The position numbers were made by a program, and so were the translations under genes. Below are positions 17,523-57,133 of a DNA stretch of 64,000 nucleotides, piece by piece. Position 1 is the stretch's first letter, and every line of letters starts with the position of its first letter. The notes under the pieces were generated by a model, which ran no database searches, was not told the origin of the DNA, and was given only the letters and a program-made list of their open reading frames with translations. Source of the stretch: an uncultured Lachnospiraceae bacterium (lineage in GTDB: Bacteria > Bacillota > Clostridia > Lachnospirales > Lachnospiraceae); contig CAJTRK010000008.1 in the NCBI GenBank assembly GCA_910578475.1, positions 31,082 through 95,081 on the forward strand, read 5' to 3'.

Positions 17523-18233
17523 ATGAATATAGCGCTTTTATTGGCCGGCGGCAGCGGAACAAGGACAGAGCAGGACGTTCCGAAACAGTTTTTTAACGTA
17601 TATGAAAAACCAATCATAATTTATACGCTGGAAGCATTTCAGAAACATCCGGACATTGACGGCATCATCGTGTCCTGCCTTGAAGGCTGGCACGAGATTT
17701 TGAGCGCTTATGCGAGGGAAGCGGGCATTACAAAACTGCGGAAAGTCGTCTGCGGCGGTGAGAACGGACAGGCTTCTGCCAGGAATGCGCTGCGGGAGTT
17801 AAAAGACATCTGCGGGGAGGACGATGTCGTTATCATACACGATGCCATACGACCGATGGTCTCTGCGGAAATCATATCCGACTGTATTGTGAAATGCAGA
17901 CAATATGGTTCCGGTCTTGCGGCAATGCGCTGCCAGGAAACGATTGTCGAGACAAACGACGGTATTAAAGGCGATACGGGCATCAGCCGGAATCATATCA
18001 TGCGGGTTCAGACGCCCCAGGCATATAAGTACGGAACTGTGATGAACGCTCATGAAAAGGCGTTGGAGCAGGGCATTACGAATGCGGTTTATACCAATAC
18101 GCTGATGCTGGATTTGGGAGAGACCCTTTATTTTGCGCAGGGCTCCGAGAAGAATCTGAAGATTACTACAATGGAAGATGTGGAGATTTTCAAGGCGCTG
18201 CTTCGGATGAAGAAGGAGGACTGGGTGAAGTGA
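17523..18233 (+). CDS. IspD/TarI-family cytidylyltransferase, copy 2
   Basis: MNIALLLAGGSGTRTEQDVPKQFFNVYEKPIIIYTLEAFQKH. It is collinear with copy 1. The ATG at 17523 follows GGAG, so the track start at 17457 is unlikely. Confidence 0.75.
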   Translation: MNIALLLAGGSGTRTEQDVPKQFFNVYEKPIIIYTLEAFQKHPDIDGIIVSCLEGWHEILSAYAREAGITKLRKVVCGGENGQASARNALRELKDICGEDDVVIIHDAIRPMVSAEIISDCIVKCRQYGSGLAAMRCQETIVETNDGIKGDTGISRNHIMRVQTPQAYKYGTVMNAHEKALEQGITNAVYTNTLMLDLGETLYFAQGSEKNLKITTMEDVEIFKALLRMKKEDWVK

Positions 18234-19246
18234 GCGGGGAAACTGAAGTATTTTCGAATTTCATATCATTGGGTTCAGCCTGTCAGACCGCGTCATCGAT
18301 GGAAAAATACGGATTAAGAGGCTGGTCGGGTCCTTTCGACTGGCTGGTCACTGACAGCCTGCAATGGGTACTGCATTACATGGAAACGGATTTTGCAGAT
18401 TTTCTGAAAAAGGAGAATCTGGAGCGCTGTCAGGAAAATCCAAAGACTTTTGTTGAAAGAAAAAGTGGGTTTATCTTTCGCCATGACCATGAATATCCGT
18501 TTGAGGATAAGTATGACAAATTAAAAGAAAAATATCAGAAAAAAATTGACCGGTTTCAAGAAGAAACGGTAAAGAAAACCTGTTTTCTCCGCACGGTCAT
18601 CAGTTCGGATGAAGTAAAATATATTGCCCGGAATTATGAATATATAAACGATATTATCAAAAGAAAGAATACCGAAAACGAAATTATTTTCTTATTGAGA
18701 CCGGACGCAGTAATCTGTGAACCGATTCCATTCCGGTATTATGTGATGCCAGGAAAGTGGAATGGCGGGCCGAACGCGGTCATCAGGAGCTGGTTTGACG
18801 GTGCGGATGAATTTCTGGAATATTGTATACGGCGTTATGATGTGATGACGCTCATGAAAAACATTGTATTTGACAGGAATAAACAGGAGAAAACATTTCA
18901 TAATACACAGACAAGATACCAGACATTACTGAAATTGACAGATTGTGATTTCCAAAAGATAGAAGTTCCTGAAAGCATTATTATCTATGGCGCAGGAAAC
19001 ATCGGCAGAAAATTTTATGAAAAAATAAAGGGAAAGTGTCATGTGGAGTGCTTTGTTGATAAAGACTGCGCAGGTAAAAGCATAGACAAAATACCGGTGC
19101 TGAAGCTGGAAGAAGCCGGAAGAGGAGAAAAGTTAATCTATATCGTTACGCCGACATATGATTTTCAGAAGATATATGAGGATATAAAAGCGCACGATGA
19201 CAGCGCGGAAATTATCTCATTAGACAGTATTCTGGGAAAAAACTGA
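18230..19246 (+). CDS. DUF1796-like (putative papain-like fold) protein with a C-terminal Rossmann-like module
   Basis: The N-terminus FISLGSACQTASSMEKYGLRGWSGPFDWLVTD resembles the DUF1796 signature. The C-terminus IIIYGAGNIGRKFYEKIKGKCHVECFVDKD...IPVL is the recurrent module. Its start overlaps the upstream stop. Confidence 0.5.
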   Translation: MSGETEVFSNFISLGSACQTASSMEKYGLRGWSGPFDWLVTDSLQWVLHYMETDFADFLKKENLERCQENPKTFVERKSGFIFRHDHEYPFEDKYDKLKEKYQKKIDRFQEETVKKTCFLRTVISSDEVKYIARNYEYINDIIKRKNTENEIIFLLRPDAVICEPIPFRYYVMPGKWNGGPNAVIRSWFDGADEFLEYCIRRYDVMTLMKNIVFDRNKQEKTFHNTQTRYQTLLKLTDCDFQKIEVPESIIIYGAGNIGRKFYEKIKGKCHVECFVDKDCAGKSIDKIPVLKLEEAGRGEKLIYIVTPTYDFQKIYEDIKAHDDSAEIISLDSILGKN

Positions 19247-19266
19247 ATGGATAAGAGGGAACAAAA

Positions 19267-20310
19267 ATGTCTGAAAAAAGCAATTGGCAGTTATTCTGTC
19301 AAAAATTGGATGATGTATTAAAAGAAACTTTGGATAAAGATATTATTATTTTTGGAAGCAATCCAGGCGGGGAATTTGTCAGGTGGTTTTATGAAACTTT
19401 TTATCACAAACAGGTAACGGCAGTAGTAGACCGTTGGAATCTGGATACCCATTATCAGGTGCACCATTTGATGTCATTGTACTATTTATGGACGGAGAAG
19501 GCCGTTATTATAAACACATTACCTGAGGATATCGGGCCGGAGAAAGAATTTAATGCGATAGGAGAAAACTGGGAGCGGACGGCATGGAAAAAAGAACAGA
19601 TTGTACCTCTTTATAAGGAAATTTTCGAGGAGGGGGGGGCAAGTAAGGACAGATATATAACATTTTACGACTGGCTGGAAGCAGAGCTTTCCTTAGATAT
19701 TTTAACATCTGTTCGAAGAGCCGATGTAAAAGGGAAAGAAAGTCACGGATACTATCCGACAGATTTTAGAATGATTTTGGAAGCGGCCGATACCGGCATA
19801 TTCGATAAGGATGCCGGCATCATGGATTTTGGATGTGGAAAGGGCGCGGCGATGATGGCGCTCAGAAATTGCGGATTTCGAAAAATTGCGGGAATTGAAT
19901 TTACAGATAGCATTTATGATATTATGTGTGATAATTTCAAAAAATCAGGGTATTGTGTAGAAAAGTGTACGAATGAGACAGTTCATAAAGAAGGCTTGCG
20001 TGAGGATATGTTTTATTGTTATTCGGGAGACGCGTCGGCTTTAAAAGAGGAGCTGGATAATTATCAGAATTTTTATTTCTTTAATCCGTTTTCTTATGAA
20101 TTGACAAGAAGGGTTCTGGGAAATATACTGGACAGCCTGGAACGAAAGCCGAGAAAGATGGCAGTTTTTTATGCAGAACCTATGTGCCACAGCATAATCA
20201 TGCAATCCGGTAAATTTGAACTTGTAAAGAAAATAGACAGATTTTTGGGCGGGGCAACTTATAGCGCTTATCTATATGAAACTTTTTATGATAGAAACTT
20301 TTGTCAGTGA
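19267..20310 (+). CDS. Class I SAM-dependent methyltransferase with an N-terminal Rossmann-like module; contains an in-frame G8 tract
   Basis: IMDFGCGKGAAMMALRNCGFRKIAGIEF is a motif-I type SAM-binding loop. The N-terminus reads IIIFGSNPGGEFVRWF...VVDRWN. The G8 tract lies at 19632-19639. Confidence 0.6.
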   Translation: MSEKSNWQLFCQKLDDVLKETLDKDIIIFGSNPGGEFVRWFYETFYHKQVTAVVDRWNLDTHYQVHHLMSLYYLWTEKAVIINTLPEDIGPEKEFNAIGENWERTAWKKEQIVPLYKEIFEEGGASKDRYITFYDWLEAELSLDILTSVRRADVKGKESHGYYPTDFRMILEAADTGIFDKDAGIMDFGCGKGAAMMALRNCGFRKIAGIEFTDSIYDIMCDNFKKSGYCVEKCTNETVHKEGLREDMFYCYSGDASALKEELDNYQNFYFFNPFSYELTRRVLGNILDSLERKPRKMAVFYAEPMCHSIIMQSGKFELVKKIDRFLGGATYSAYLYETFYDRNFCQ

Positions 20311-20370
20311 TATCCATATTAACAGCATGGTAATGTATGATAAAGCGGATGAAAGGAAAGTGAGGATACA

Positions 20371-22602
20371 ATGGTAAGAAGAGACATAACACAATTGGCT
20401 GTATGTGAGACACAACAGGAATTGGACAGTGTTCCTTTTGAGTGTTTGAGAAAATTTTATTTAGACAAGACATCGGAAATTATTTATTTTACAAAAGAGA
20501 AAAAGCTTTATGGGATTGTATGTACGCGTGAGGCGGTTAGCGGCAAAGATATTATAACAATTAATAAGTCTTTTACGGTTTTACAGGAAGGTGATATTGT
20601 AAAAGCCTGCAGAACATTTCAGTCAAGAAAAACAAGGATACATAAAATACCCATTGTCAACGCGCAGGGGGAATTAGTCGGCGATTATTCCAGTTGGGAC
20701 GATATGCTTTATATTGAAAGAAATCGAAACAGGTTAATGCGGAAAGAATCTGTAAAAAAGGTATTGGGAATCTATCATAAAATATACATGGTGAAATCCA
20801 TTGCCGAAAAGCTTCCGGTTTATATCCAACTGACAGGTTATTTAGAGCGTTTTGGCATTGAATATTTGCCATTGGATAAAGAGCAGATTGCAGGGAAGCT
20901 GTCAGAGAAGGCCTGTTTTATCTTTGTGGATGAGGATGAGAGAAGGGGAACAGAGTGTCTGTTCCAAATTGAACCTTGTTTTTATGATATTCGGGGAAAG
21001 TACATTTACGAATATGATATGCTGGCAAGTGCATTTGATAACTTAAAGTTCGTGACGTACAAAAGCCTGATGGTGCAGATAATGTACAATAATCAGTTTG
21101 AAACATTACAGGTGAAAAAGCCTGACAGTGTATATAGTGATTTGGTAGACGATAAAGTTTCATTTTTACTATCGGCATTGAATAAACGAGGCGTGAATTG
21201 TTTTTGTATATATAATTTTGAGGATAAAGATGTAATATCTGATTATTGTAAAGAATTTCAGAATGAAGTAAAAGAAAGAATGGCTAAATTTCCCAGAAAG
21301 CTTAAAAAGCCCTGGCCGCAAAAAGATGAAAATCCGGATTTTTTTGATGATTTATATCAAAATCCGGATTATGAAAAAGAAATTGTACAGAGAGAGACTT
21401 TTTTTCAGCTGACTGCATATGAGTATAAAAATGGCATTGAAGGTAAATACTGCAATGCAAAAAATGGCAGAAGGGTAACCTGCTTTCAGCCTGAAGAATA
21501 TATTGGAACAATCTATACTTTTGGCAGATGTATGATGTTAGGAGTATATGCGGAAGACCAGAATGCAATTACAAGTATTTTGCAGAAAAAGCTGATGGAA
21601 GCCGGATACGCATATCGGGTAGAAAATTGTGCAGATATGGTGAGGGCAGACTGTTCCATCGATGAAAGATTGCGTGAAATAGGTAAATTTAACCAAAATG
21701 ATATTATTGTTTTCTTTTCATCGCCGCCACACAGGTGTGTTGGTATACAAGGGATAGCATTAGAGCAAATTTTTGAAAAACATCAGATTCCAAGTACATG
21801 GGTAGAAGATACGGAATATGGACATTGCAATCATAAGGCAAATCGGATTATAGCTGATGAAATTTTGGAAATGGTAAAGCCCTGCCTTGTAAATAAACCG
21901 GAAACAAACGACAGAGAAGTGCAGTTTTGTATTCACGAAGAAATGAAGAATTATGTGTATCATAGATATATAGAACATTATTTTTCAGATTTTGCCGGTG
22001 GGAAATATGCTTCGGTTGGCGCAATCGTTATGGATTGCGACCCTTTTAGTATTGAGCACCGTTATTGGATAGAATGGGCAAGCAGACAGGTTGAGTTTTT
22101 AATTTTATTCATATTCGAGAGAGACGTGTTAACATTTTCTTTTGAAGAACGATATAAGATGGTCATAGAAGGAACAAAGGATATCGATAATATTATGGTT
22201 GTACCGAGTGGAGCGTGTATTCTTTCCGATGTAACGTTTCTGGAGTATTTTTCTGGAGATAAAAATGCGGTGATATATAATGCCAGAAATGACCTTAATG
22301 TATTTGCGGATTATATTGCGGAACTTCTTCATATTACACATCGCTTCGTAGGGAATGAAACAGAGCGGGAGAGCGTGAAAATTTATAATGAAGAGATGAA
22401 ACGGATTTTGCCGCAAAAGGGAATCAGTTGTGTTGAAATGCCGGCAATGCCGCAGGGTCAAGCTGTCTGTGCGCCTAAAGCAATAAGGTATTTAAGAAAT
22501 AAGGAATATGATAAAGCGTTTGAACTGCTTCCGGAAACAACTCAAAAATATATTATGAATCATCTTTATTTAACGGAAGAACTGAAAAGTCAGGCAGAAT
22601 GA
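20371..22602 (+). CDS. 743-aa multidomain protein: CBS-like N-terminus, an unknown central region and a CitC-type (citrate lyase ligase-like) nucleotidyltransferase/ligase C-terminal domain
   Basis: The C-terminal GAIVMDCDPFSIEHRYWIEWASRQVEFLILFIF...SFEERYKMVIEGTKDIDNIMVVPSGACILSDVTFLEYF...THRFVGNE aligns by eye with E. coli CitC (GAIVMNANPFTLGHRYL...LHLF...THRFVG). The N-terminal GELVGDYS-type segment looks CBS-like. Confidence 0.6.
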   Translation: MVRRDITQLAVCETQQELDSVPFECLRKFYLDKTSEIIYFTKEKKLYGIVCTREAVSGKDIITINKSFTVLQEGDIVKACRTFQSRKTRIHKIPIVNAQGELVGDYSSWDDMLYIERNRNRLMRKESVKKVLGIYHKIYMVKSIAEKLPVYIQLTGYLERFGIEYLPLDKEQIAGKLSEKACFIFVDEDERRGTECLFQIEPCFYDIRGKYIYEYDMLASAFDNLKFVTYKSLMVQIMYNNQFETLQVKKPDSVYSDLVDDKVSFLLSALNKRGVNCFCIYNFEDKDVISDYCKEFQNEVKERMAKFPRKLKKPWPQKDENPDFFDDLYQNPDYEKEIVQRETFFQLTAYEYKNGIEGKYCNAKNGRRVTCFQPEEYIGTIYTFGRCMMLGVYAEDQNAITSILQKKLMEAGYAYRVENCADMVRADCSIDERLREIGKFNQNDIIVFFSSPPHRCVGIQGIALEQIFEKHQIPSTWVEDTEYGHCNHKANRIIADEILEMVKPCLVNKPETNDREVQFCIHEEMKNYVYHRYIEHYFSDFAGGKYASVGAIVMDCDPFSIEHRYWIEWASRQVEFLILFIFERDVLTFSFEERYKMVIEGTKDIDNIMVVPSGACILSDVTFLEYFSGDKNAVIYNARNDLNVFADYIAELLHITHRFVGNETERESVKIYNEEMKRILPQKGISCVEMPAMPQGQAVCAPKAIRYLRNKEYDKAFELLPETTQKYIMNHLYLTEELKSQAE

Positions 22603-22628
22603 TTTACATTATAAGGAGGATGGAAACA

Positions 22629-22862
22629 ATGGAAGAGAGAATATTAAAAATATTGGAAGAACAGTGTGAGGAAGTATTGGATTATGATGGTGATAATATG
22701 ATGGAAGACGGCGTCATAGATTCTTTTACTGTTCTGGATATAATAAATGGCTTAGAAGAAGAATTTGATATCGAAATCGATGCAGATTATGTAATAGCGG
22801 AAAACCTAAAAAATAAAGATACAATTATTGCATTGGTCAGAAAAGTGTTGGCGGAAAATTGA
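22629..22862 (+). CDS. Acyl/peptidyl carrier protein (ACP/DltC-like, 77 aa)
   Basis: GVIDSFTVLDIINGLEEEFDIEIDADYV corresponds to the ACP DSL(D)TVELV..LEEEF phosphopantetheine-attachment helix. The candidate Ser codon is at 22722-22724. AAGGAGG lies 9 nt before the ATG at 22629. Confidence 0.7.
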   Translation: MEERILKILEEQCEEVLDYDGDNMMEDGVIDSFTVLDIINGLEEEFDIEIDADYVIAENLKNKDTIIALVRKVLAEN

Positions 22863-23074
22863 CGAGTTTATACATCGGAAGAGAAAAAGAGCCCGAACGC
22901 TTAGCAGTAATTATAAATACTCTGCCCAATAATTTAGGACCTGAGAATGAATTTGGTAATATAGGAGAGGTATGGGAGCGGACAGCATGGAAAGATGAAC
23001 AGATTATATCATTGTATGAAGAAATTTTTCCAAACAGCAGATTTGGGATATGGGCAAGTTTTATATATCACTAA
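22859..23074 (+). pseudogene. Remnant of a paralogue of the 19267..20310 methyltransferase gene
   Basis: AVIINTLPNNLGPENEFGNIGEVWERTAWKDEQIISLYEEIF aligns with AVIINTLPEDIGPEKEFNAIGENWERTAWKKEQIVPLYKEIF (19489-19640). It has no plausible start or RBS and lacks both flanking domains. Confidence 0.6.
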
Positions 23075-23098: not shown

Positions 23099-23151
23099 AT
23101 ACTTTAGCAAGGATTGCGATAGTGTTGCACGGAGGCAGAATAGCATTGAGT

Positions 23152-25844: not shown

Positions 25845-25850
25845 GAAGGT

Positions 25851-33279: not shown

Positions 33280-33285
33280 AAATTC

Positions 33286-44047: not shown

Positions 44048-44072
44048 TGATGATTGTAAAGGGAGGAAGCTC

Positions 44073-46616: not shown

Positions 46617-46633
46617 AGTATGGTGAAAAAAAT

Positions 46634-47989: not shown

Positions 47990-48065
47990 ATATGTGCCGG
48001 TATATATATCATATTATATAAAATGGATACGGAAAGAGATATTGAAAAGGGATGGAGAAAAAATA

Positions 48066-49430
48066 ATGGATGATATCAAAGTATCAGTTTTGGTATATGT
48101 GTTAAATGATAAAGTTCATATAGAGAAGTGCGTGAGAAGCGTTATGCAGCAAACCCTGAAGGAGCTGGAAATACTGCTGATTGATGGAGGCAGTACCGAT
48201 GGTACGCTGGAAAAATTGGAACAGCTGCAAAAAGAGGATTCCCGGATAAAGATAATCAGGAGCGGCGCCGGTGTAGGTTTGCAGTTCAATACCGGATGCA
48301 AGGCGGCAGCGGGGAAATATATCGGAATATGTGAATCGGATGATTATCTGCTCCCGGATATGTACGAGCGGCAGTACGCGGTTGCGGAGCAGTTTGAACT
48401 GGACGTATTAAGGGCAAATATAAATCGTTTTTGTGGAGATGGGGACAGGCAGTATGATTTTCCGTTTGCGGTATCTGCCGACAGAACATTGTATGATACG
48501 CTTCTGTATCCGCAGGAGGATGCAAGGTTTTTGGGGTTGGGAGTGAACTGCTTCTGGAGCGGATTATACAGAAAAGAATTTTTACTGGCTAAGGATATCT
48601 CTATGAACGAGACAAAAGGCGCTTCTTATCAGGATACGAGCTTTTCTTTTCTGACACAGATGTATGCGGAGCGGGCCTATGTGATGAGCGATGCTTTTTA
48701 CTGCTATCGCATTGACAATCCAAATTCCTCTGTCAATAATCCGCAGAAGGCAGCTTTGCTGAATACGGAATACCGGTTGTTGAAAGAGAAGCTGAAACAA
48801 CGTAATCTTTGGGAAAAGTACAGGGAAATATATTGGAAATGGCGGGTCAACGGTTATTTCTGGGCCTATGATAATGTATCGGAAGAGGGGAAAGCCGAGT
48901 ATCTTCCGGTCTTTTATAAAGACATCAGGGAAGAAATGGAGTCAGAACTTTACCTGGGAACGGAACTTTCCGGAAAGGAACGGGCGTTATGTGAAAGCGG
49001 CAGAGGTTCTCTGGCGGAATTTGGTGATTTTCTGGAACGGGCGGATGCGCTGAGAAAACAGGAAGAAAAGAAAATAAGAGAAATCGGGACAGACGGTCAA
49101 ACGGTTATTTTCGGAGCGGGAAATCTGGGACTGCTGGCAAGTGGATATCTGGAACAGAAAGGGAAGAAGGCGGCTGCCTATATCGATAATGCTGCCTGGA
49201 AATGGGACAGCCTTTTTTACGGTCTTCCGGTTTTATCACCCGAAGAAGGCGTCTGTCAATATCCGGACGCTGCGTATATTATTGCGAATGCCGCTCATGG
49301 ACAGGAAATGAAAGAACAGCTGAACAGTCTGGGAATCCGTGATGACAAAGTCGTTATCTGTGACAATTATGATTTGTTTATCGCGCATATCTTAGTTCCT
49401 TATTGGAAGAAGGGCGGCAGCAATGATTAG
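48066..49430 (+). CDS. Family-2 glycosyltransferase with a C-terminal Rossmann-like module
   Basis: VSVLVYVLNDKVHIEKCVRSVMQQT, ILLIDGGSTDGT and CESDDY. The C-terminus reads VIFGAGNLGLLASGYLEQKGKKAAAYIDN...GLPVLSPEE. The ATG at 48066 is preferred over the track start at 47994. Confidence 0.8.
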   Translation: MDDIKVSVLVYVLNDKVHIEKCVRSVMQQTLKELEILLIDGGSTDGTLEKLEQLQKEDSRIKIIRSGAGVGLQFNTGCKAAAGKYIGICESDDYLLPDMYERQYAVAEQFELDVLRANINRFCGDGDRQYDFPFAVSADRTLYDTLLYPQEDARFLGLGVNCFWSGLYRKEFLLAKDISMNETKGASYQDTSFSFLTQMYAERAYVMSDAFYCYRIDNPNSSVNNPQKAALLNTEYRLLKEKLKQRNLWEKYREIYWKWRVNGYFWAYDNVSEEGKAEYLPVFYKDIREEMESELYLGTELSGKERALCESGRGSLAEFGDFLERADALRKQEEKKIREIGTDGQTVIFGAGNLGLLASGYLEQKGKKAAAYIDNAAWKWDSLFYGLPVLSPEEGVCQYPDAAYIIANAAHGQEMKEQLNSLGIRDDKVVICDNYDLFIAHILVPYWKKGGSND

Positions 49431-50610
49431 TATAATTGTACCCGTTTATAATGTCGGTTCGTATTTACCAAAATGTATCGACAGTATCTTAAAACAGACC
49501 TGCGGTGACTTTGAGCTGATTCTGGTGGACGACGGTTCAACGGATGATTCGCCTCAGATTTGTGACAGCTATAAAGAAAAGGACGCAAGAGTTGTCGTCA
49601 TACATAAACAGAATGAAGGCCTGGTCAGGGCAAGAAAGACAGGACTGCAAAAGGCAGCTGGCCAATATATCTGCTATGTGGATGGCGATGACTGGATAGA
49701 AGCCGATATGATAGAGCATTTATCGGAAAAAATGGCGGAGACAGGAGCTGACCTGGCAGCTTCCGGCCTTTATTGTGAGTCGGAAGATTCTGTCCAGAAA
49801 TTACATGGAAAATTGGAAGCCGGAATTTATGATACAAAAGAGATTCTTTCAATCATGTTATATACCGGAGAATTTTATGAATTTGGCGTCAGCCAGTTCG
49901 CCTGTACAAAATTGTTTCGAAGAGATTTATTATGGGATGTCCAGATACAGGTGGATGACAGAATTAATTGCGGTGAAGATGTGGCCGTGACATATCCCTA
50001 TATTCTCCGGACACAAAAGATTTGTATATCGGATTATATCGGATATCACTATATACAGCGGGCCGGTTCCATCGTAGGATGTTTTGATTCTGACGAATAT
50101 GACAGAAATAAAATACTGATTGCATATTTGAAAAATATCTTTGACCGGTCAGCTTATGCGGAATGTCTGCTCAGGCAGTTAAACCAGTATGCCAAAAATT
50201 TATTTCTGACACGCAATATCGCCTGTTTTGATGTTCTTCAAAAGGATGAAATACTGATGCCTTATGGCGGCATACCGGTAAATGCCCGCATTATCCTGTA
50301 TGGGGCCGGAAAAATGGGACAGAGCCTGTACAGGTATCTGAAAGGCCGGGATTCCATAGAAGTGGTGGACTGGCTGGATAAAAATTCCGCCGTATATCAA
50401 AAAAAAGGTATGGAAGTGCATTGCCCCGATTGTTTGAAAAAAATACAGGATAAGGCATATGATTTTCTCTTGATTGCGGTAAACAGCCAGAAGGCGGTAA
50501 AAAGCATTTATTGCTGTTTAGAGGAAATGGGCGTAAACGCGGAAAAGATAAAGTGGCTGAGGGAAGAGTTTATCAGGGAAGATTACTTTATACTGGATGC
50601 GTTTGCATGA
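49423..50610 (+). CDS. Family-2 glycosyltransferase with a C-terminal Rossmann-like module
   Basis: ISIIVPVYNVGSYLPKCIDSILKQT, LILVDDGSTDDS and YVDGDD. The C-terminus reads IILYGAGKMGQSLYRYLKGRDSIEVVDWLDKN. It overlaps the upstream gene by 8 nt. Confidence 0.8.
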   Translation: MISIIVPVYNVGSYLPKCIDSILKQTCGDFELILVDDGSTDDSPQICDSYKEKDARVVVIHKQNEGLVRARKTGLQKAAGQYICYVDGDDWIEADMIEHLSEKMAETGADLAASGLYCESEDSVQKLHGKLEAGIYDTKEILSIMLYTGEFYEFGVSQFACTKLFRRDLLWDVQIQVDDRINCGEDVAVTYPYILRTQKICISDYIGYHYIQRAGSIVGCFDSDEYDRNKILIAYLKNIFDRSAYAECLLRQLNQYAKNLFLTRNIACFDVLQKDEILMPYGGIPVNARIILYGAGKMGQSLYRYLKGRDSIEVVDWLDKNSAVYQKKGMEVHCPDCLKKIQDKAYDFLLIAVNSQKAVKSIYCCLEEMGVNAEKIKWLREEFIREDYFILDAFA

Positions 50611-50649
50611 AGTTTTGAGAACTTTGAGCGGGGAAAAAGGAGAAACGGC

Positions 50650-51837
50650 ATGGACATGGAAATCATTTTATTTGGAAGCGGAGCGATTGGCCAGGAGGCC
50701 CTTGCTTTTCTGGGAAATAGTAATGTCGTATGTTTTTGCGATAATAATCCCGAACTGGCGGGAAAAGAAAAACATGGAAAGACAGTGATTCCATTTCAGG
50801 AATTAAAGCAGGAACATAAAGAAGCGGTTGTGGTCATTTCTGCGAACCGTAAAATAGCATATGAGATTGTAAATCAGTGTGAAGAAAATGAAATCCGGGA
50901 TTATGTGTTTTATGAATCTTTGAAGGATTTATATCCGGAAAGGAAGGATGCTCTGGCATTTTTATCGGATTCGGAAAACCGGACAAACATGCGGAAAGAT
51001 ATCTATTTTGCCAAGATAAAGGAATTACAGGAACAGGTAGATTATTTAAAAAGACACGCGGATATAAGGCATATGAAGCCTGCCACAGGAGAACTTCGAA
51101 AGTGGCAGCTGGAACTTGCGGACATGTCGGAGGAGTTTTTTGAGAAATTGCACGGGTTGGATATAAAGCCTTTCTTAGACGGCGGCAATTTATTGGGATA
51201 TGTCAGACATAATGGATTTATTCCGTGGGATGATGATATTGACTTTGCGCTCATTAGAGACGAATATGAAAAACTGAAGGATTTTTGCCGGAAAAATATT
51301 TGTTCCATGCAAGAGTTTGCGAACAGAAAAAATACAGACGTTCATAATGTTACCGGAATGGAAAACTATTATTGGATTAATTTTGGTGATTTTATCAGAA
51401 TTGTCAAGCACGTTCCGGGTGGAAACGATTTAAGAGTTGAATTTTTTTCATTGGATTTTTATAACGATGCCTATACTTTTGAAGAATTGATGAAATTTTC
51501 GGAAGAGGTACGGAAAAAAATGATAAAAGGTTCCTTTGAAGAAATGGCAAGTTTTTTTGAAGCCGTACTGAATGAAAATCGTCAAAATATTGTCAAAGAC
51601 AGCAGTCATATTTATTTCGGAATAGATAACATGGAAATTCGGAATACGCACAGTAAAAACCAGTGGATTCCCAAAGAGGTTATATTTCCCTTACAAAGGA
51701 TTCAGTTTGAAGGAAAATCTTTCTGGGTACCGAATAAACCGGAAGAATTTCTGCAGTATGAATATGATTCTATCTGGGATTATCCCGATGATGTCGGAGC
51801 ACCAAAGCATTATGGCGGTTTGGGAATATCCGAATGA
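50650..51837 (+). CDS. LicD-family phospho(choline/alditol) transferase with an N-terminal Rossmann-like module
   Basis: FLDGGNLLGYVRHNGFIPWDDDIDFAL is the LicD signature. The N-terminus reads IILFGSGAIGQEALAFLGNSNVVCFCDNN...GKTVIPFQEL. Confidence 0.75.
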   Translation: MDMEIILFGSGAIGQEALAFLGNSNVVCFCDNNPELAGKEKHGKTVIPFQELKQEHKEAVVVISANRKIAYEIVNQCEENEIRDYVFYESLKDLYPERKDALAFLSDSENRTNMRKDIYFAKIKELQEQVDYLKRHADIRHMKPATGELRKWQLELADMSEEFFEKLHGLDIKPFLDGGNLLGYVRHNGFIPWDDDIDFALIRDEYEKLKDFCRKNICSMQEFANRKNTDVHNVTGMENYYWINFGDFIRIVKHVPGGNDLRVEFFSLDFYNDAYTFEELMKFSEEVRKKMIKGSFEEMASFFEAVLNENRQNIVKDSSHIYFGIDNMEIRNTHSKNQWIPKEVIFPLQRIQFEGKSFWVPNKPEEFLQYEYDSIWDYPDDVGAPKHYGGLGISE

Positions 51838-51883
51838 TTATAGAAACAGAACACTTGGAAACGATTGTTTCCATAGCTTATAA

Positions 51884-53518
51884 GTGGGTGGAAGCAGGGT
51901 GAATGACGATAACAGAGAAACTTCTGTCAGAAATGCGATTATTCTGGCAGCAGGATACGGAATGAGAATGGTTCCCGCGGACAGGGAGATACCCAAAGGG
52001 CTTCTCGAAGTGTACGGGGAGCCATTAATTGAACGGCTTATCAAACAGTTGCAGGAAGCCGGTATATCGGAAATCTATGTGGTAGTCGGATATAAAAAAG
52101 AAAAGTTTGAATATCTGATAAAAAGATATGGGGTGAAGCTGATTTTCAATGCAGAATACGCAGAAAAAAACAGTCTGTATTCTTTAAAAGCAGCTGCGGG
52201 ATATTTATCCGATTCCTATATTATTCCATGCGATGTATGGTGTAAAAGGAATCCGTTCCGTCGTCAGGAATCCGGTTCATGGTATATGGTCGGTTCTCTG
52301 ATGGATAAAGAAAGCCTCGTACGGGTGGATTCCTCCGGAGAACTTGTTCTGGTTCCCAAAGATAATTCTGGAAATACAATGATTGGCATTTCGTATCTGG
52401 CAAAAGAGCAGGCGGCTGTCGTCAGAGACAAAATGACAGCGCTTTGCAGAGAGAATGGCAATGCAGAACTCTTATGGGAAGAGGCATTGCTTAACCGGGC
52501 CGAAAATAAGATGATGATACGGTCAAGGCTTGTTGACGCGGACGATGTGGTGGAAATCAATACCTATGAGCAGCTGCGCGAACTGGATAAAAATTCAAGT
52601 CATCTGCAATCGGATGCAATCGCGGCAGCGGCCGAAATAATAGGCGTTGGAAATGATGAAATTGTCGATATATCTGTTTTAAAAAAAGGGATGACAAACC
52701 GCTCTTTTCTGTTTTCATGCCGCAACCGGAAATATATTATGAGGATTCCGGGAGAAGGGACCCAACAGCTTATCGACAGGCGTGCAGAGGCAGAAGTGTA
52801 TCAAAGCCTGAAAGGAAAAGGCATTTGCGATAATGTTATCTATATGAATGCGGAAAACGGGTATAAAATAACGGAATTTATAGAGGGAACGAGAGTATGC
52901 GACCCGTTTAACCCCAAAGATTTAGTAATCTGTATGGAGAAACTGCGTGCATTTCACGAGCAGGAATTCGGCGTGGAGAGGGAGTTTCACATTTTTGAAC
53001 AGATTGAATTTTATGAAGCCCTGTGGGGCGGAAAACCGTCTGCATATCAGGACTATGAGACTACAAAAGAGCGGGTAATGCGGCTGCAGTCCTATATCAA
53101 TGCCCATACGGATAAAAAAGTATTGACGCACATAGATGCTGTTCCGGATAATTTTCTGATTATGGAGGATGAAAAGGGAGCCTGTGAAGTCCGGATTATC
53201 GATTGGGAATATGCCGGGATGCAGGACCCGCATATCGATATTGCAATGTTCTGCATCTATTCAATGTATGAAAAAGAGCAGGTGGATAATCTGATTGATA
53301 TTTATTTTCAGCAGAACTGTCCTGACGAGACAAGAGTAAAAATTTACTGCTATATAGCCGCCTGCGGCCTGCTGTGGAGTAACTGGTGCGAATATAAAGC
53401 GATACTGGGCGTTAAATTTGGGGAGTATTCCCAAAGACAGTATGATTATGCAAGAGAGTATTATCAGATTGTGCAGGATATTTTAAGCCGGGAAGAGGAT
53501 GAAGGATGTATTACATAA
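51884..53518 (+). CDS. Bifunctional nucleotidyltransferase (LicC-like) / choline-ethanolamine-type kinase (LicA-like) fusion
   Basis: The N-terminus reads NAIILAAGYGMRMVP...PKGLLEVYGEPLIERLIKQLQEAGISEIYVVVGY. The C-terminus has LTHIDAVPDNFLI (HxDxxxxN) and RIIDWEYAGMQDPHIDIAMF, a choline kinase motif. The start (GTG 51884 or 51899) is uncertain. Confidence 0.7.
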   Translation: MGGSRVNDDNRETSVRNAIILAAGYGMRMVPADREIPKGLLEVYGEPLIERLIKQLQEAGISEIYVVVGYKKEKFEYLIKRYGVKLIFNAEYAEKNSLYSLKAAAGYLSDSYIIPCDVWCKRNPFRRQESGSWYMVGSLMDKESLVRVDSSGELVLVPKDNSGNTMIGISYLAKEQAAVVRDKMTALCRENGNAELLWEEALLNRAENKMMIRSRLVDADDVVEINTYEQLRELDKNSSHLQSDAIAAAAEIIGVGNDEIVDISVLKKGMTNRSFLFSCRNRKYIMRIPGEGTQQLIDRRAEAEVYQSLKGKGICDNVIYMNAENGYKITEFIEGTRVCDPFNPKDLVICMEKLRAFHEQEFGVEREFHIFEQIEFYEALWGGKPSAYQDYETTKERVMRLQSYINAHTDKKVLTHIDAVPDNFLIMEDEKGACEVRIIDWEYAGMQDPHIDIAMFCIYSMYEKEQVDNLIDIYFQQNCPDETRVKIYCYIAACGLLWSNWCEYKAILGVKFGEYSQRQYDYAREYYQIVQDILSREEDEGCIT

Positions 53519-54213
53519 AGAGAGCGATTATTCTGGCGGCAGGAATGGGAAACAGAATGAGTCCCGTGACAAAGAAGACTCCGAAACCGCTGATTCGGGT
53601 AAATGGCACGCGAATCATTGATACGGCGATACAGGGGTTAAGAGCGAATGGGATTCAGGAAATTTATGTGGTGACAGGTTATCTGAAAGAACAATTCAGT
53701 GGCCTGGAGAAAGATTATCCGGGATTAAAGCTGATTGAAAATCCTTATTATGCCGAATGCAATAATATTTCCTCCCTGTATATGGCAAGGGAGTATATCG
53801 GGGATGCGATGATACTGGATGGAGACCAGATAATTTATAATAACAGCGTTCTTGCGCCGGAATTTGTCCGTTCGGGATATAATGCCGTATGGGTGGAAAA
53901 CGGAACGGATGAGTGGTTAATGACGGTCAAAGATGATATTGTAACCAATTGCAGCCGTGTCGGCGGAAAAGAAGGCTGGCAGTTATTCAGCATTTCCAGA
54001 TGGAATACGGAAGACGGGGAAAGATTAAAAAAGCATTTGGAAACAGAATTTGAAAGAAAGAAGAATACCCAGATTTATTGGGACGATATTGCGATGTTCT
54101 TATATCAGCGGGAATACCGACTGGGAATTTATCCAATGTCTCAGGGGGATATTGTTGAGGTTGATAATTTGTATGAGCTTGCGGCGCTGGATAGAAGTTA
54201 CGCGGCGGAATGA
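53506..54213 (+). CDS. LicC-like nucleotidyltransferase (CTP:phosphocholine cytidylyltransferase family)
   Basis: RAIILAAGMGNRMSPVTKKTPKPLIRVNGTRIIDTAIQGLRANGIQEIYVVTGY. It overlaps the upstream gene by 13 nt. Confidence 0.7.
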   Translation: MYYIKRAIILAAGMGNRMSPVTKKTPKPLIRVNGTRIIDTAIQGLRANGIQEIYVVTGYLKEQFSGLEKDYPGLKLIENPYYAECNNISSLYMAREYIGDAMILDGDQIIYNNSVLAPEFVRSGYNAVWVENGTDEWLMTVKDDIVTNCSRVGGKEGWQLFSISRWNTEDGERLKKHLETEFERKKNTQIYWDDIAMFLYQREYRLGIYPMSQGDIVEVDNLYELAALDRSYAAE

Positions 54214-55760
54214 GAGGAAACATGAACAAAACTCAGAAATTAAAGGACCAAATTGACTGGGTTTCAATAATCGTACCGTTTCTGGGAGTTAGTGCGCTTT
54301 GTGCTGTTTTTATGATATTTCCGGGGCAGTCTGCGATAATTCTGCAGATTATCCGTGGATTTCTTGGAGATGAATGCGGAATATATTATGCGGTATTGGG
54401 TGTTGGCATACTTCTCTGCACAATCTATATCGCTTTTTCCAGATATGGACAAGTCAGACTGGGAGAAGGAAAACCCTTGTATTCCTCCTTTACATGGGGA
54501 ACCATGATTTTTACATCTACAATGGCGGCAGACATTCTCTTTTATTCGCTGATTGAATGGGCTTTGTATGCGAATGAGCCGCATATTGAGAAGATGGGAG
54601 GAATACAAAATTGGGCTTCTACCTACCCATTGTTTCACTGGGGGCCGATTGCCTGGAGTTTTTACATTGCTCTGGCGGTGGCCTTTGGCTTTATGCTGCA
54701 TGTCAGACATTGTGAAAAACAAAAGTTTTCAGAAGCATGCAGACCGATTTTAGGTTGTAAGATAGACGGCGTTTGGGGAAAAGTGATTGATTTGATAGCA
54801 ATATTTGCATTGATTGCCGGAACTGCGACTACCTTTTCGCTCGCGACGCCTTTACTTTCATCGGCATTCAGTAAAGTACTGGGGATTTCGGCAGGAAGAG
54901 GAGGAACCATCGTCATATTGCTTCTGATAGCATTTATCTATACGTTGACTGTATGGTTTGGAATGAAAGGTATTTCAAAACTGGCTTCCTGGTGCACTTA
55001 TCTGTTCTTTGTATTATTACTTTATTTTTTAATCGGCGGCGGAGAAACCGTTTACATTTTGGAAACGGGATTTTCTGCGATTGGAAATCTGATTCAGAAT
55101 TTTATCGGAATATCTACCTGGATGGACCCTCTGCGCGAAAGCAGCTTTCCACAGAACTGGACGATATACTATTGGGCATATTGGATGGTCTGGTGCGTTG
55201 CGACTCCGTTTTTTATCGGTTCTATCAGCAAAGGAAGAACTGTCAAAAATACGATTCTCGGGGGATACGGATGGGGAATTGCAGGAACATTCACGTCATT
55301 TATTATTCTTGGCAACTATGGATTGGCGCAGCAGGTGAAGCATGGACTGGATGTGGCCGGATTCATTGCCGATGGCGGGGCATATTCGGACGCGATTCTG
55401 ATAATTTTTGAAACAATGCCGCTTGAACGGATTGGGCTGCTTCTCCTGGTAGTAACCATGATTGCATTTTACTCTACGACATTTGATTCCATTACAATGG
55501 TGGTTTCTTCTTATTCATATAAAAAGCTTCCGGTCGGGCAGGAGCCGGATAAACGGGTCAGAACTTTTTGGGCTGTTATGTTTATCGTGTTTCCGATTGC
55601 GCTTATATTTTCAGAAAGCTCTATGTATCATTTGCAGTCCGTATCGATTATCGCGGCATTTCCGATTGGACTGGTTGTATTGTTAATCATCGCAAGCTTT
55701 TTTAAAGACATTAAAAAGTATTGGCTGAGCGCAAATGGAAAGGATGCAGAAAATCAATGA
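54210..55760 (+). CDS. BCCT-family (betaine/carnitine/choline) transporter
   Basis: The protein is polytopic and hydrophobic. WTIYYWAYWMVWCVATPFFIGSISKGRTVKN matches the BCCT signature region. The ATGA arrangement overlaps the upstream stop. Confidence 0.85.
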   Translation: MRGNMNKTQKLKDQIDWVSIIVPFLGVSALCAVFMIFPGQSAIILQIIRGFLGDECGIYYAVLGVGILLCTIYIAFSRYGQVRLGEGKPLYSSFTWGTMIFTSTMAADILFYSLIEWALYANEPHIEKMGGIQNWASTYPLFHWGPIAWSFYIALAVAFGFMLHVRHCEKQKFSEACRPILGCKIDGVWGKVIDLIAIFALIAGTATTFSLATPLLSSAFSKVLGISAGRGGTIVILLLIAFIYTLTVWFGMKGISKLASWCTYLFFVLLLYFLIGGGETVYILETGFSAIGNLIQNFIGISTWMDPLRESSFPQNWTIYYWAYWMVWCVATPFFIGSISKGRTVKNTILGGYGWGIAGTFTSFIILGNYGLAQQVKHGLDVAGFIADGGAYSDAILIIFETMPLERIGLLLLVVTMIAFYSTTFDSITMVVSSYSYKKLPVGQEPDKRVRTFWAVMFIVFPIALIFSESSMYHLQSVSIIAAFPIGLVVLLIIASFFKDIKKYWLSANGKDAENQ

Positions 55761-55852
55761 TTACGAACGAGCGGTAAACTGGGTAAAAAATAATTATTCG
55801 GACGAAGGAAAGTAGAAAAACCTTGCAAAACGGATTGGAACGGAGGAGTTTT

Positions 55853-57133
55853 ATGGGAAAGGAATGCGAGAACGATGCTGACAGATTTTCCGGTATTCTT
55901 GAAAAGCCCTTCTGCATCTACGGCGCCGGCATCGTTGCGACCAGCGTTTACACCGCAATCCGGACGCTGTACCGGAAAAAACCTCTTTTTTTCCTGGTAT
56001 CGGATGCTGCGGAAGGAAAGCCGGACGAGAACCCATATGAAATAAACGGTATTCCGGTAAAAAGAATGTCCGAATGGAAGCCTGGGAAATTTTCAGCAGG
56101 AAGCCGGCCGGAATACTATCTCGTTGTCGCTCCCGAGACGCATCATCCCGCCATAACGGAGTCATTGCATTCTCTGCGGATAGAAGATTCCCGAATCGTT
56201 CTGTTTACCGGTGAACTGGAAAATCAGTTTATGGAAGCCTATTACAGCAGCCTGCCGGGATGCGGCACGGTAAAGAAACTGTTGGCCGCAAAAGCGGGAT
56301 ATGCGCAGGAAACTGTTGCTATGAAAGAAATCGTAAAGAAGCCTGATTATGCAAGAGAGGATACTGCAGCAGAATCAGCGGCAGGATTGGCCATCATGAT
56401 ACCGCATGAAGCTGAGACGACCGCGGCCCGTAAGCCGGATATCCTCCGCGTCTTTCAGGCCAAATGTCATGTGGACCGCCCCTTACAGAATCCGGTACAG
56501 AACCCTTCTTATGTGTACCCGATTCAGGTCGGCGCAGACCTTACGGAGCAGATTATCTCCGGACTGCAGGATAATCAGGGGGAAAATATTTCCTGCAAAA
56601 ACCGCAATTACTGTGAGCTGACCGCTACATATTATGCCTGGAAGAATTGTCAGGCGGCTTACAAGGGATTATGCCATTACCGGCGGATTTTTGAAATAGA
56701 TGACTGCCAGATGCGGGAGTTGATGAACCGGCGGGAGGAATGGGATGTGATTCTTCCCTATCCGTCCGTCCATTATCCGAACATTTCTACACAGCATCTT
56801 CGCTATATCCGGGAGGAAGACTGGCAGGCGATGCTGCGGGCATTGGAAGAAACTGCGCCGGATTATTTTGCGGCCTGGCGGCAACTGGTCGATGGCGGAG
56901 AGCAGTTCTTTTATAATTACAATATGCTGATTGCCAGAGCCGAAGTATTTGACGATTACTGCGATTTCCTTTTTTCCGTTCTGGAGCGGGCGGAAGCGCT
57001 GACGACGCCGAAGGGATGGGAGCGGGCTGACCGTTTTGCGGGATATATGGGCGAGAATCTGACGACGCTTTATTTTTTGAAAAACAAAGATAAATTAAAG
57101 ATTTTACATGCGGGAAAACGATGGCTGGTTTAA
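55853..57133 (+). CDS. DUF4422-type putative glycosyltransferase with an N-terminal Rossmann-like module
   Basis: ILRVFQAKCHVDRPL, YPIQVGA, NRNYCELTATYYAWKN and GLCHYRRIFE resemble DUF4422. The N-terminus reads FCIYGAGIVATSVYTAI...FLVSD...INGIPV. GGAGG precedes the ATG at 55853. Confidence 0.6.
   Translation: MGKECENDADRFSGILEKPFCIYGAGIVATSVYTAIRTLYRKKPLFFLVSDAAEGKPDENPYEINGIPVKRMSEWKPGKFSAGSRPEYYLVVAPETHHPAITESLHSLRIEDSRIVLFTGELENQFMEAYYSSLPGCGTVKKLLAAKAGYAQETVAMKEIVKKPDYAREDTAAESAAGLAIMIPHEAETTAARKPDILRVFQAKCHVDRPLQNPVQNPSYVYPIQVGADLTEQIISGLQDNQGENISCKNRNYCELTATYYAWKNCQAAYKGLCHYRRIFEIDDCQMRELMNRREEWDVILPYPSVHYPNISTQHLRYIREEDWQAMLRALEETAPDYFAAWRQLVDGGEQFFYNYNMLIARAEVFDDYCDFLFSVLERAEALTTPKGWERADRFAGYMGENLTTLYFLKNKDKLKILHAGKRWLV

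Follow-up and report, generated by a model that had tools for sequence, protein, structure and literature searches.

The CoA_binding_3 domain (PF13727) of the large phosphoglycosyl transferases and dehydratases (WbpM/PglF/CapD, WbaP) is an accessory, non-catalytic part of glycan-pathway enzymes, and in the WbaP/PglF type its position is fixed, with a four-helix membrane bundle on one side and a single catalytic domain on the other. UMP, UDP and UTP each stabilize the WbaP domain in isolation; this domain also forms the dimer interface, and an allosteric role has been proposed for it (PMC10942596). In PglD, the N-domain is a fixed active-site lobe of one enzyme family. PglD-type N-domains are UDP-binding platforms, and their contacts with the UDP-sugar include Ser13 and Asp35/Asp36 (PMC8040287). 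Two further structures carry a related domain: 2g6t, an uncharacterised Clostridium acetobutylicum protein, is itself a fusion of the module described here with a C-terminal domain of ~200 aa, and 2py6, an FkbM-family methyltransferase from structural genomics, holds a solved module (residues 51–119) fused to the methyltransferase; a literature search found no function or publication for PF22674/2g6t and no published analysis of 2py6. Judging by the name, C2185-like_N is presumably based on CA_C2185, which we take to be the protein of 2g6t. Rex is a further relative, in which a dimerizing sensor domain is accompanied by a winged-helix DNA-binding domain at the N-terminus and a swapped helix at the C-terminus.

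Analysis of the window, a 64,000-nucleotide stretch of DNA from a gut Lachnospiraceae bacterium, revealed that 11 genes of a flagellum-linked glycosylation island carry one mini-Rossmann domain, with the copy in ORF 19267 being marginal. Sequence comparison confirmed that the module shared by island ORFs 18230–57133 is real and homologous. Ten ORFs in this interval contain a homologous Rossmann-like module of ~90 aa, and 10 of the 11 copies (E 1e-21 to 6.6e-5) were found by an independent profile of 176 database segments from which anything at least 40% identical to a window copy had been excluded. Leave-one-out HMMs (Z=1000) recovered eight of the 11 at E≤5.5e-5, with weaker scores for 44028 (0.002), 19267 (0.01) and 46634 (0.14). 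A profile of the 11 copies, run over the window's complete set of 529 six-frame ORFs, gave no other significant match and left the SDR Rossmann enzymes 35858, 37830 and 57181 unmatched. These three approaches agree, and they bear out the recurring pattern that the initial annotation had noticed across island proteins. A supposedly decayed copy in the 81-aa ORF 38944 found no support, being non-significant by leave-one-out, 11-copy and independent profiles (E 1.6 to 3.8). Pairwise identities of only 18–28% between window copies, and scores that lie below the Pfam gathering thresholds in every case, might suggest that the segments resemble one another by chance, or share no more than a generic Rossmann motif, and are not specifically related. 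This reading is refuted by the window-specific scan, which passed over the other Rossmann enzymes, by the independent profile and by the 8,825 cluster representatives with the same signature that make up the family in the database; one fold was also modelled with high confidence (see below), and the probability left to chance is practically nil.

All copies lie on the forward strand. The DUF1796 protein (ORF 18230–19246, DUF1796 at aa 10–135) has a C-terminal module (aa 244–338; 18959–19243) with a canonical GAGNIG ... FVDKD signature, an independent-profile E of 8e-17 and a leave-one-out E of 5e-13. In the adjacent ORF 19267–20310, a weak class-I methyltransferase with a weak Methyltransf_23 match, the N-terminal copy (aa 21–120; 19327–19626) has lost the Gly loop (GSNPGG) and kept the Asp; it is a marginal, degenerate copy, because its independent-profile E is 0.09 and the alignment spans only strand 1 to strand 2. 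A twelfth copy at about 22895–23026, in the gap before ORF 23274, is a pseudogene fragment that retains and duplicates only the C-terminal half of the 19267-like module (HMM match E 2e-4 to profile positions 57–95). The hexapeptide acetyltransferase (ORF 31879–33279), with a long left-handed beta-helix (Hexapep and acetyltransferase models at aa 306–441, Hexapep at aa 384–417), has an N-terminal module (aa 19–113; 31933–32217) in which the Gly loop is degenerate (GFFETS) and the Asp is kept (independent profile E 8.6e-12; leave-one-out E 4e-11). The GT11 fucosyltransferase-type protein (ORF 33286–34398, Glyco_transf_11 at aa 165–368) begins with the module (aa 1–95; 33286–33570; E 1.1e-14), which GT11 homologues elsewhere lack. 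A DUF268/class-I methyltransferase (ORF 44028 or 44073 to 45122) carries an N-terminal module of the C2185-like_N subtype (44061–44345; GTGNFA ... FIETH; E 5.6e-12); its orthologues have precomputed weak PF22674 matches, and one in locus L044 is full-length with 55% identity.

The remaining copies follow closely downstream. ORF 46128–46616 encodes a 162-aa protein with an N-terminal hydrophobic Gly/Ala-rich helix (aa 5–27), a conserved linker helix and then the module (aa 69–162; 46332–46613; GMNYVG ... AIDKN; E 5e-15), in agreement with its earlier description as a stand-alone copy behind a hydrophobic N-terminus. Three GT2 proteins have C-terminal modules: a divergent one in ORF 46634–47989 (aa 345–444; 47666–47965), with an independent-profile E of 6.6e-5, a leave-one-out E of only 0.14 and a sub-threshold Methyltransf_14 match at aa 314–413; a canonical one in ORF 47994–49430 (alternative start 48066; aa 364–463; 49083–49382; GAGNLG ... 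YIDNA; E 1e-21), which also matches the NeuD-family N-terminus at E 1e-3; and a canonical one in ORF 49423–50610 (aa 283–382; 50269–50568; GAGKMG ... WLDKN; E 2e-20), the copy used for AF2 modelling. The LicD-family protein (ORF 50650–51837, LicD at aa 171–278) has an N-terminal module (aa 1–92; 50650–50925; GSGAIG ... FCDNN; E 2.9e-19) that scores 25.6 bits against CoA_binding when excised. Finally, the DUF4422 protein (ORF 55823–57133, or 55853 start; DUF4422 at aa 215–411) carries a near-N-terminal module with an insertion (aa 25–134; 55895–56224; GAGIVA; E 1.9e-7), and full-length orthologues occur in loci L001 and L009. Domain matches thus confirmed the ORFs and catalytic domains as first assigned. 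The claim of at least 10 different catalytic domains holds for the number of fusion proteins, which is 10, and not for distinct catalytic families, which number eight, or seven without 19267.

The domain opens with strand 1, the Gly-rich loop and a helix; strand 2, which ends in Asp, comes next, and two further strand–helix units follow. An AF2 model of the 49423 module (pLDDT 88.9, pTM 0.81; E6-11 / H15-25 / E30-36 / ... / E66-69 / H74-86 / E94-96) matched only Rossmann domains in Foldseek, with 3nkl best (E 3.5e-4), then 2g6t (E 7.6e-4, TMq 0.63, rmsd 2.5 Å over 95 columns), followed by Rex, DapB and GFO/IDH/MocA NAD domains; together with the conserved Gly loop and Asp, this places the module in the NAD(P)-binding Rossmann-like fold. 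Searching the PDB with the family profile returned 3nkl (1.2e-12), Rex (2e-10), 2g6t (2e-6), VioB (7txp; 4.8e-6), WbaP (1.3e-3) and FkbM 2py6 (7e-3), and these alignments share the signature GAGxxG...D(N/D)xxxKxGxxxxGxxV. The most conserved positions among the 176 independent members are Gly1 (98%), the Asp after strand 2 (93%), Gly2 (88%) and Gly3 (69%). The Gly-rich loop and this Asp constitute, at the sequence level, a nucleotide-binding fingerprint. In the window, nine of the 11 copies have the Asp and one has Glu, and the Gly loop is full in six, GxGxxA in two and degenerate in three. A usable loop is absent from 3–4 of the 11 (lost in 31879 and 19267, partly in 33286 and 46128), so canonical nucleotide binding is impossible for the complete set.

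In the classical NAD/FAD fingerprint, GxGxxG is combined with an acidic residue behind strand 2. This feature, the strong Rex match and a majority of NAD(P) enzymes among the Foldseek matches could point to a domain that binds NAD(P)(H) like Rex, either as a sensor of redox or energy state that couples glycan decoration to the redox state of the cell, or as a genuinely NAD(P)-dependent domain that performs a redox step itself. We consider this very unlikely, because the module, with some four strands only, is missing the other half of a dinucleotide fold, it has no catalytic partner typical of dehydrogenases, and GT2, LicD and GT11 enzymes are expected to do no redox chemistry; furthermore, the ligands of its closest glycan-pathway relatives (WbaP DUF, PglD_N) are uridine nucleotides rather than NAD. 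The match to the C-terminal NADH-binding domain of Rex extends over the entire module, the helix that follows strand 3 included, and is confined to the Rossmann part (residues 80–171) of a protein that recurs often in Foldseek; domain scans detected no DNA-binding domain in any window module protein.

The N-domain of PglD, NeuD and VioB (PF17836; TIGR03570) has fold and signature in common with the module, and VioB superposes on a tandem-module model with an rmsd of 2.1 Å over 80 columns. The proposed likeness to NeuD/PglD N-domains is supported by the VioB match and by sub-threshold PglD_N and NeuD-family matches on several window copies, yet it was imprecise, since 3nkl, Rex and 2g6t are closer; the PglD_N gathering threshold of 23.4 bits was not reached by the best copy, the 49423 module (20.9 bits; 17.6 bits for the full protein). 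The module could be read as a substrate platform, an integral active-site lobe that holds the nucleotide of a nucleotide-linked substrate or, in the extreme form, permits tailoring or extension of a glycan still on its nucleotide carrier. The PglD, Pcryo_0637 and VioB N-domains, the only relatives with a known in-enzyme role, bind UDP- or dTDP-sugars, the nucleotide fingerprint is conserved, with the module Asp corresponding to the region of the PglD contacts Asp35/Asp36, and several relatives match Methyltransf_14, a domain that forms the C-terminus of sugar C-methyltransferases. ORF 31879 also repeats the combination of module and beta-helix; it is the sole PglD/NeuD-like architecture in the window, and none of the other ten copies lies directly N-terminal to a beta-helix acetyltransferase. 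We nevertheless regard an active-site lobe as unlikely: GT2, GT4, GT8, GT11 and LicD enzymes bind donors in their own folds and have homologues that work without the module, the Gly loop is gone from some copies, and placement at either end, variable linkers, two to four tandem copies, and module-only and anchored forms fit it poorly.

These architectures are widespread. Proteins of the family carry one to four modules in N-terminal, C-terminal or internal position, more than 30 enzyme families serve as partners (FkbM among the commonest), and some proteins consist of two modules and nothing else. The catalytic families of the fusions also exist without the module. In 148 relatives scanned at E≤1e-5, PglD_N was found in 13 and PF22674 in 10. 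The variable placement and copy number, the two-module proteins, the anchored 46128 form and the module-less catalytic homologues together argue against a place for the module in an active site; it is a mobile accessory domain carried by cytoplasmic enzymes that build glycans. Within the window, it occurs on 10 of 18 transferase/tailoring genes and on none of 15 precursor/transport genes (Fisher p 4.7e-4), and so marks the transferase and tailoring enzymes, not those making activated precursors. Across loci, the distribution is nearly all-or-none: among 80 GT2-centred loci, 70 have no module gene and eight have 4–11. These loci come largely from related Lachnospiraceae, and common descent of a single hypervariable island type could account for part of the pattern. 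The fusions are kept as units across genomes at 30–70% identity, which, with the restriction to transferase/tailoring genes and the all-or-none loci, supports the original suggestion of a shared function.

The stand-alone anchored form represented by 46128 is a conserved subfamily in alignments, and its homologues recur in module-rich loci. All 32 long loci that encode one hold 2–14 module genes (median 8.5), which make up a median of 47% of their genes. Docking of the fusion enzymes to 46128 gains support from this strict co-occurrence. The membrane topology of 46128 is ambiguous from its own sequence, with flanking charges in homologues alone favouring a cytoplasmic module. A purely assembling role without any ligand has been considered, where modules pair mutually and with 46128 into a membrane-tethered multi-enzyme glycosylation complex and the Rossmann motif is a relic. 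The co-occurrence and the near all-or-none distribution are consistent with this, as are tandem repeats and two-module proteins, the retention of copies with a degenerate Gly loop, and the dimer interfaces formed by related domains (WbaP DUF, Rex). It is improbable all the same, because the Gly loop and Asp are the most conserved features of the family (88–98%), which argues for selection on ligand binding. In an AF2 monomer model of a natural two-module protein, each module is confident (pLDDT 90.9) but their mutual packing is not (pTM 0.59, linker pLDDT 53–60); this tandem arrangement therefore lends no AF2 support to module–module pairing.

The role that we favour, tentatively and at slightly less than an even chance, is a nucleotide-binding accessory handle for regulation and/or assembly. 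Among the three functions first suggested, nucleotide binding has the best, albeit indirect, support, because the Gly loop and Asp are most conserved and match the nucleotide-contacting region of PglD-type domains; docking to flagellin drew no support from the analysis. The module is likely to bind a nucleotide and may connect the enzymes with one another. In the proposed mechanism, each copy would use its Gly loop and Asp to hold a nucleotide by the ribose-phosphate; the likeliest ligand would be a by-product of the UMP/UDP/CMP type or the nucleotide moiety of an activated sugar. The module would act away from the catalytic site, as a handle for regulation and/or assembly that the enzymes have in common, and would place the many enzymes of an island under the same ligand. 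That they should all share one ligand is not obvious, since the by-products differ between host enzymes (UDP/GDP, CMP, SAH, CoA). The island enzymes would probably self-associate via the module, the anchored 46128 may act as a membrane tether, and for copies whose Gly loop is gone (31879, 19267; in part 33286 and 46128) only a structural or association role would remain.

The module groups with CoA_binding_3 (3nkl), C2185-like_N (2g6t), the PglD/NeuD/VioB N-domain and the Rex NADH-sensing domain. The 2py6 match is weak, and the window has no FkbM fusion. For C2185-like_N, the Foldseek match shows structural equivalence to the 2g6t N-domain, and the profile match covers residues 5–90 of 2g6t. 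PF22674 (cut-off 27 bits) covers one subfamily of the module: it gave no match at E≤10 with five modules excised from the window or with the complete 46128 protein, none at E≤0.01 in full-length window proteins, and 21.4 bits with P0008, a homologue of 44028. CoA_binding_3 provides the best sequence and Foldseek match (3nkl) and shares the signature GAGxxG ... DD/DN ... K.G .... G..V; the family HMM also picks up CapD/WbpM-like proteins in two loci, L042 and L078. Window copies did not reach the PF13727 threshold in hmmscan, and none of the 11 proteins has the architecture of a membrane bundle with a phosphoglycosyl transferase or SDR dehydratase, with only 46128 having a single hydrophobic helix. 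In contrast to the PglD N-domain, 10 of the 11 window copies reside on other enzyme classes, at either end, or alone. In contrast to the WbaP/PglF domain, which is likewise accessory and non-catalytic, the module is found at either end of soluble enzymes from many families, frequently in repeats, and also on its own. It is a widespread add-on to sugar-transfer enzymes, of an already known kind.

Twelve proposed segments were excised and their homology was tested in three ways; the ORFs and catalytic domains match those described in the initial annotation. With the database size fixed at 1000, leave-one-out profiles recovered eight copies at E ≤ 5.5e-5, with weaker values for 44028 (E 0.002), 19267 (E 0.01), 46634 (E 0.14) and 38767/38944 (E 1.6), each copy being named by the start of its host ORF. 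An 11-copy profile searched against all 529 six-frame ORFs of the window found nothing else of note save a fragment at 22817–23071, and it gave less than 6 bits to the NAD-dependent SDR epimerases/dehydratases at 35858, 37830 and 57181, thus indicating that it is not a generic Rossmann detector and ruling out generic Rossmann similarity. An independent profile, made from unrelated database proteins (176 segments, all below 40% identity to any window copy), recovered 10 of 11 copies at E values from 1e-21 (47994) to 6.6e-5 (46634); 19267 reached E 0.09, and the 38944 ORF was not returned. The proposal of one shared module is thus borne out for ten copies, which align significantly with the independent profile. 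Judged from these alignments, we regard the ten as solid and 19267 as a degenerate copy that aligns over strand 1 to strand 2 only. The module had been described as fused to at least ten different catalytic domains; there are indeed ten fusion proteins, but they represent eight catalytic families, namely DUF1796, GT2 (three proteins), two kinds of methyltransferase, a β-helix acetyltransferase, GT11, LicD and DUF4422.

A further copy, described as decayed, had been placed at 38944. With a leave-one-out E of 1.6, no significant match to the 11-copy profile and no hit from the independent profile, this assignment is unsupported and was rejected. The ORF (38944–39189, 81 aa) lies between a CDP-sugar dehydratase gene and a Glyco_trans_1_2 gene and has a strand-helix-strand look, but it significantly matches neither the module nor any Pfam family. 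Separately, the non-coding gap before ORF 23274 contains, at about 22895–23026, a copy of the C-terminal half of the 19267 module (LAVIINTLPNNLGPENEFGNIGEVWERTAWKDEQIISLYEEIF); this fragment is a gene remnant and evidence of past rearrangement inside the island.

None of the window copies reached Pfam or NCBIfam thresholds, and the sub-threshold matches were all to small nucleotide-binding Rossmann domains (PglD_N, CoA_binding, DapB_N, TrkA_N, 2-Hacid_dh_C, Methyltransf_14, the NeuD family and Rex). A search of PDB entries with a profile made from 85 members of the family matched the N-terminal accessory domain of a WbpM/PglF-like enzyme (3nkl, E 1.2e-12), Rex (5zz5, E 2e-10; also 2vt2), an uncharacterised C. 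acetobutylicum protein (2g6t, residues 5–90, E 2e-6), VioB (7txp, E 5e-6), several entries for WbaP (E 1.3e-3) and an FkbM methyltransferase (2py6, residues 51–119, E 7e-3), and the signature GAGxxG ... D(N/D)xxxKxGxxxxGxxV is common to these alignments. The AF2 model of the 49423 module (pLDDT 88.9, pTM 0.81) consists of strand-helix-strand, two short helices and a second strand-helix-strand. Foldseek ranked 3nkl and 2g6t at the top for this model (TMq 0.60–0.63, rmsd 2.5–2.7 Å), followed by Rex, DapB and the NAD domains of GFO/IDH/MocA proteins. The Pfam family PF22674 ('C2185-like_N') was flagged on orthologues of ORF 44028; going by the name, C2185 would be CA_C2185, the protein of 2g6t. 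The module is a member of the PglD_N/CoA_binding_3/C2185-like_N/Rex mini-Rossmann group, within which the window copies are divergent and go unrecognised by current models.

An exhaustive profile search over 1.84 billion cluster representatives revealed 8,825 relatives at E ≤ 1e-3 and 153 at E ≤ 1e-10. Architectures were compared in the best 148 proteins, leaving aside those from a word-indexed search with an 11-module alignment (14 short fragments of near-orthologues). Among the best 148, the module is N-terminal, internal or C-terminal, and it is present once in 25 proteins, twice in 109, three times in 11 and four times in 3; the score ranking is biased to multi-copy proteins because scores are additive. 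Their partner domains include GT2 (32), GT4 (16), FkbM (12) and other methyltransferases, cytidylyltransferase (6), LicD (5), radical SAM (4), WbsX (3), GT-D (3) and GT8 (2), as well as TagF-type glycerophosphotransferase, DUF5672, PGA_cap and TylF. The PglD_N, C2185-like_N and Methyltransf_14 models together match only about one in four of these relatives, so Pfam coverage of the family is partial. Six database proteins of 200–250 aa (P0039, P0048, P0100, P0109, P0123 and P0151) are made up solely of two modules, and high-G+C organisms are the source of several of them, so that outside Firmicutes the domain has its own function.

A scan of GTDB genomes with the GT2 protein 49423 yielded 80 loci from many phyla, each spanning about 20 kb around a GT2 homologue. 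The module was absent from 70 of these and present once in 2, in both cases as the CoA_binding_3 domain of a CapD/WbpM-like protein. The remaining 8 loci contained 4 to 11 modules, every copy in a different gene, with partners including RgpF, FkbM, GT4, GT32-type, Caps_synth, a TIM-barrel isomerase and a Maf-type (MptE-like) protein. The fusions are inherited intact: alignments at 30–70% identity run the full length of the proteins and span both catalytic domain and module (47994 with L007; 49423 with L016, L009 and L044; 44028 with L044; 55823 with L009; 31879 with database protein P0156; 18230 with P0158). GT11 and LicD homologues outside the window lack the module. The fusion to an MptE-like (Maf, motility accessory factor) domain is found at L007:2641–3909, within a Lachnospiraceae locus where 11 module genes lie within 21 kb; Maf/MptE-like proteins are a family of flagellin glycosyltransferases. 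The sole module-rich locus outside Firmicutes, L001, is a 24.5-kb scaffold labelled as a Muribaculaceae MAG (JAMPHJ010000040.1) that is syntenic with window positions 46128–57133. Its orthologues of 46128, 18230, 46634, 47994 and 55823 are 57–71% identical to the window proteins, and its 49423 homologue is 39% identical. In view of this synteny and identity, occurrence in Bacteroidota was rejected; L001 probably reflects either mis-binning or a recent transfer out of Lachnospiraceae.

The anchored stand-alone form (46128, a 162-aa protein in which the module follows a hydrophobic N-terminal helix) was aligned with four homologues and the alignment used to scan metagenomes, which revealed 80 loci with 51–69% identity to this form. 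Further module genes were present in all 32 loci of at least 15 kb (2 to 14, median 8.5) and made up a median 47% of their genes by a crude gene count; these loci come from related Lachnospiraceae, and the locus-level contrast is descriptive and not phylogenetically controlled. The 431 module ORFs of the metagenome loci form 240 clusters at about 50% identity and add GT-D, GT8, TupA-type ATP-grasp, polysaccharide deacetylase and sulfatase-type domains to the partners. Flagellin, FliD, FliS, FliW and FlaG were absent within ±10 kb in every module-rich locus, which is uninformative because the window flagellin gene itself lies 35 kb from 46128.

The window derives from a Lachnospiraceae bacterium, and identical proteins are present in Lachnospiraceae MAG records, where the NCBI labels go no further than 'hypothetical protein', 'glycosyltransferase', 'LicD family protein' or 'papain-like cysteine peptidase'. 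Its first 11 kb contain flagellar genes (a rod-type protein, a hook-associated flagellin-like protein, FliW, FlaG, FliD, FliS and flagellin, the last at 9718–10818), and downstream of these a plus-strand run of glycan genes with a lower G+C content (about 0.36–0.44) extends from about 16.5 to 58.3 kb. Five minus-strand GT2-TPR paralogues flank this run on both sides; together with two DUF3880 plus Glyco_trans_1_2 genes, they lie at 10959–14220 and 58302–60517 (minus strand) and at 4184–5371 and 15143–16312. Flagellar genes followed by a bracketed low-G+C glycan run are the layout of a flagellin glycosylation island. The module is absent from all five GT2-TPR genes and from both DUF3880 genes, which are candidate genes for sugar transfer to flagellin.

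Several features of the island concern its likely products. The genes at 50650–55760 comprise the module-LicD gene, a nucleotidyltransferase-choline-kinase fusion (51884), a second nucleotidyltransferase (53506) and a BCCT transporter (54210), a complete set for choline uptake, activation and transfer that suggests a phosphocholine-type decoration. At 20371–22862, a gene for a 743-aa protein whose C-terminal domain is of the citrate-lyase-ligase type precedes an 80-aa ORF (22620–22862) that has an acyl/D-alanyl-carrier-like IDSF serine motif and no Pfam match; the two may act as ligase and carrier in the addition of an acyl or amino-acid group to the glycan. A class-I methyltransferase gene at 43276–44047 is broken into overlapping ORFs (43276–43710 and 43685–44047) exactly at nine G (43686–43694) followed by seven T. 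Such homopolymers cause phase-variable switching in Campylobacter flagellar glycosylation islands, and this tract could be of that type or, alternatively, a sequencing error.

Within the window, the module is carried by 10 of 18 transferase or tailoring genes versus 0 of 15 precursor, carrier or transport genes (one-sided Fisher p = 4.7e-4). The 15 module-free genes encode IspD-type and other nucleotidyltransferases, aminotransferases, an aldolase, a decarboxylase, dehydratase/epimerases, radical SAM, choline kinase, the BCCT transporter, the ligase-like protein and the carrier-protein-like ORF. Related enzymes with and without the module also coexist, as in GT11 (33286 versus 45195) and GT2 (the trio versus 30060).

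Among 176 independent members, the best-conserved positions are the three loop glycines after strand 1 (98%, 88% and 69%, respectively) and the Asp that ends strand 2 (93%); a Leu and a Gly in the last helix-turn are also strongly conserved. A Gly loop with an Asp after strand 2 is the classical fingerprint for gripping nucleotide phosphate and ribose. UMP, UDP and UTP stabilise the isolated WbaP domain, which accounts for most of the dimer interface and has been proposed as an allosteric regulator of its enzyme (PMC10942596). The module might instead be a fixed lobe of every active site, but it occurs at either end of proteins, in tandem arrays and alone without an enzyme, and homologues of the host enzymes work without it. 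Since these observations oppose a fixed lobe, we favour a nucleotide-binding accessory handle, which would regulate and/or assemble the island enzymes, with the putatively anchored 46128 as a possible tether. Weak points of this account are that the Gly loop is degenerate in three or four window copies and that the nucleotides released differ among host enzymes.

A further weak point of the handle account is that the AF2 model of a natural two-module protein, made with a 42-sequence tandem alignment, has confident single domains (pLDDT 90.9) yet no confident packing of the two (pTM 0.59); Foldseek with this model returned no two-domain template. A more far-reaching and rather unlikely reading is that the handle mediates hetero-association, with up to fourteen different tailoring enzymes docking on each other and on the membrane-anchored stand-alone copy in a nucleotide-gated 'glycosylation factory'. 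Such a factory would decorate flagellin or another cytoplasmic acceptor in a set order, and more than 240 different module-tagged enzymes would be shuffled between islands, giving strain-specific glycans while the assembly interface is kept. In a variant, the growing glycan would sit on a nucleotide carrier, and each of the enzymes would grip this carrier via its module.

Accessory domains of glycan-building enzymes are poorly understood, and the single close relative with experimental work behind it, the WbaP DUF (2024), points to nucleotide sensing and dimerisation. If the favoured reading of a shared regulatory or docking handle is correct, it would account for the coordination of long soluble glycosylation pathways, and one HMM would provide a simple sequence marker for such islands and their member enzymes, many of them otherwise unannotated. 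With its function putative, the module represents a real, testable lead on this coordination. Literature searches found no paper that treats the domain as a tag common to glycan enzymes and nothing relevant on flagellin glycosylation in Lachnospiraceae, C2185/CAC2185, 2G6T, 3NKL or PF22674/PF17836/PF08484. The fold, part of the family (PF17836, PF22674 and PF13727) and three unpublished structural-genomics structures (3nkl, 2g6t and 2py6) are already known; what appears to be new is how extensively the module is fused (more than 30 partner families), its nearly all-or-none occurrence across loci, the tagging of about half the genes in a hypervariable glycosylation island of common gut Lachnospiraceae, and a conserved membrane-anchored stand-alone form.
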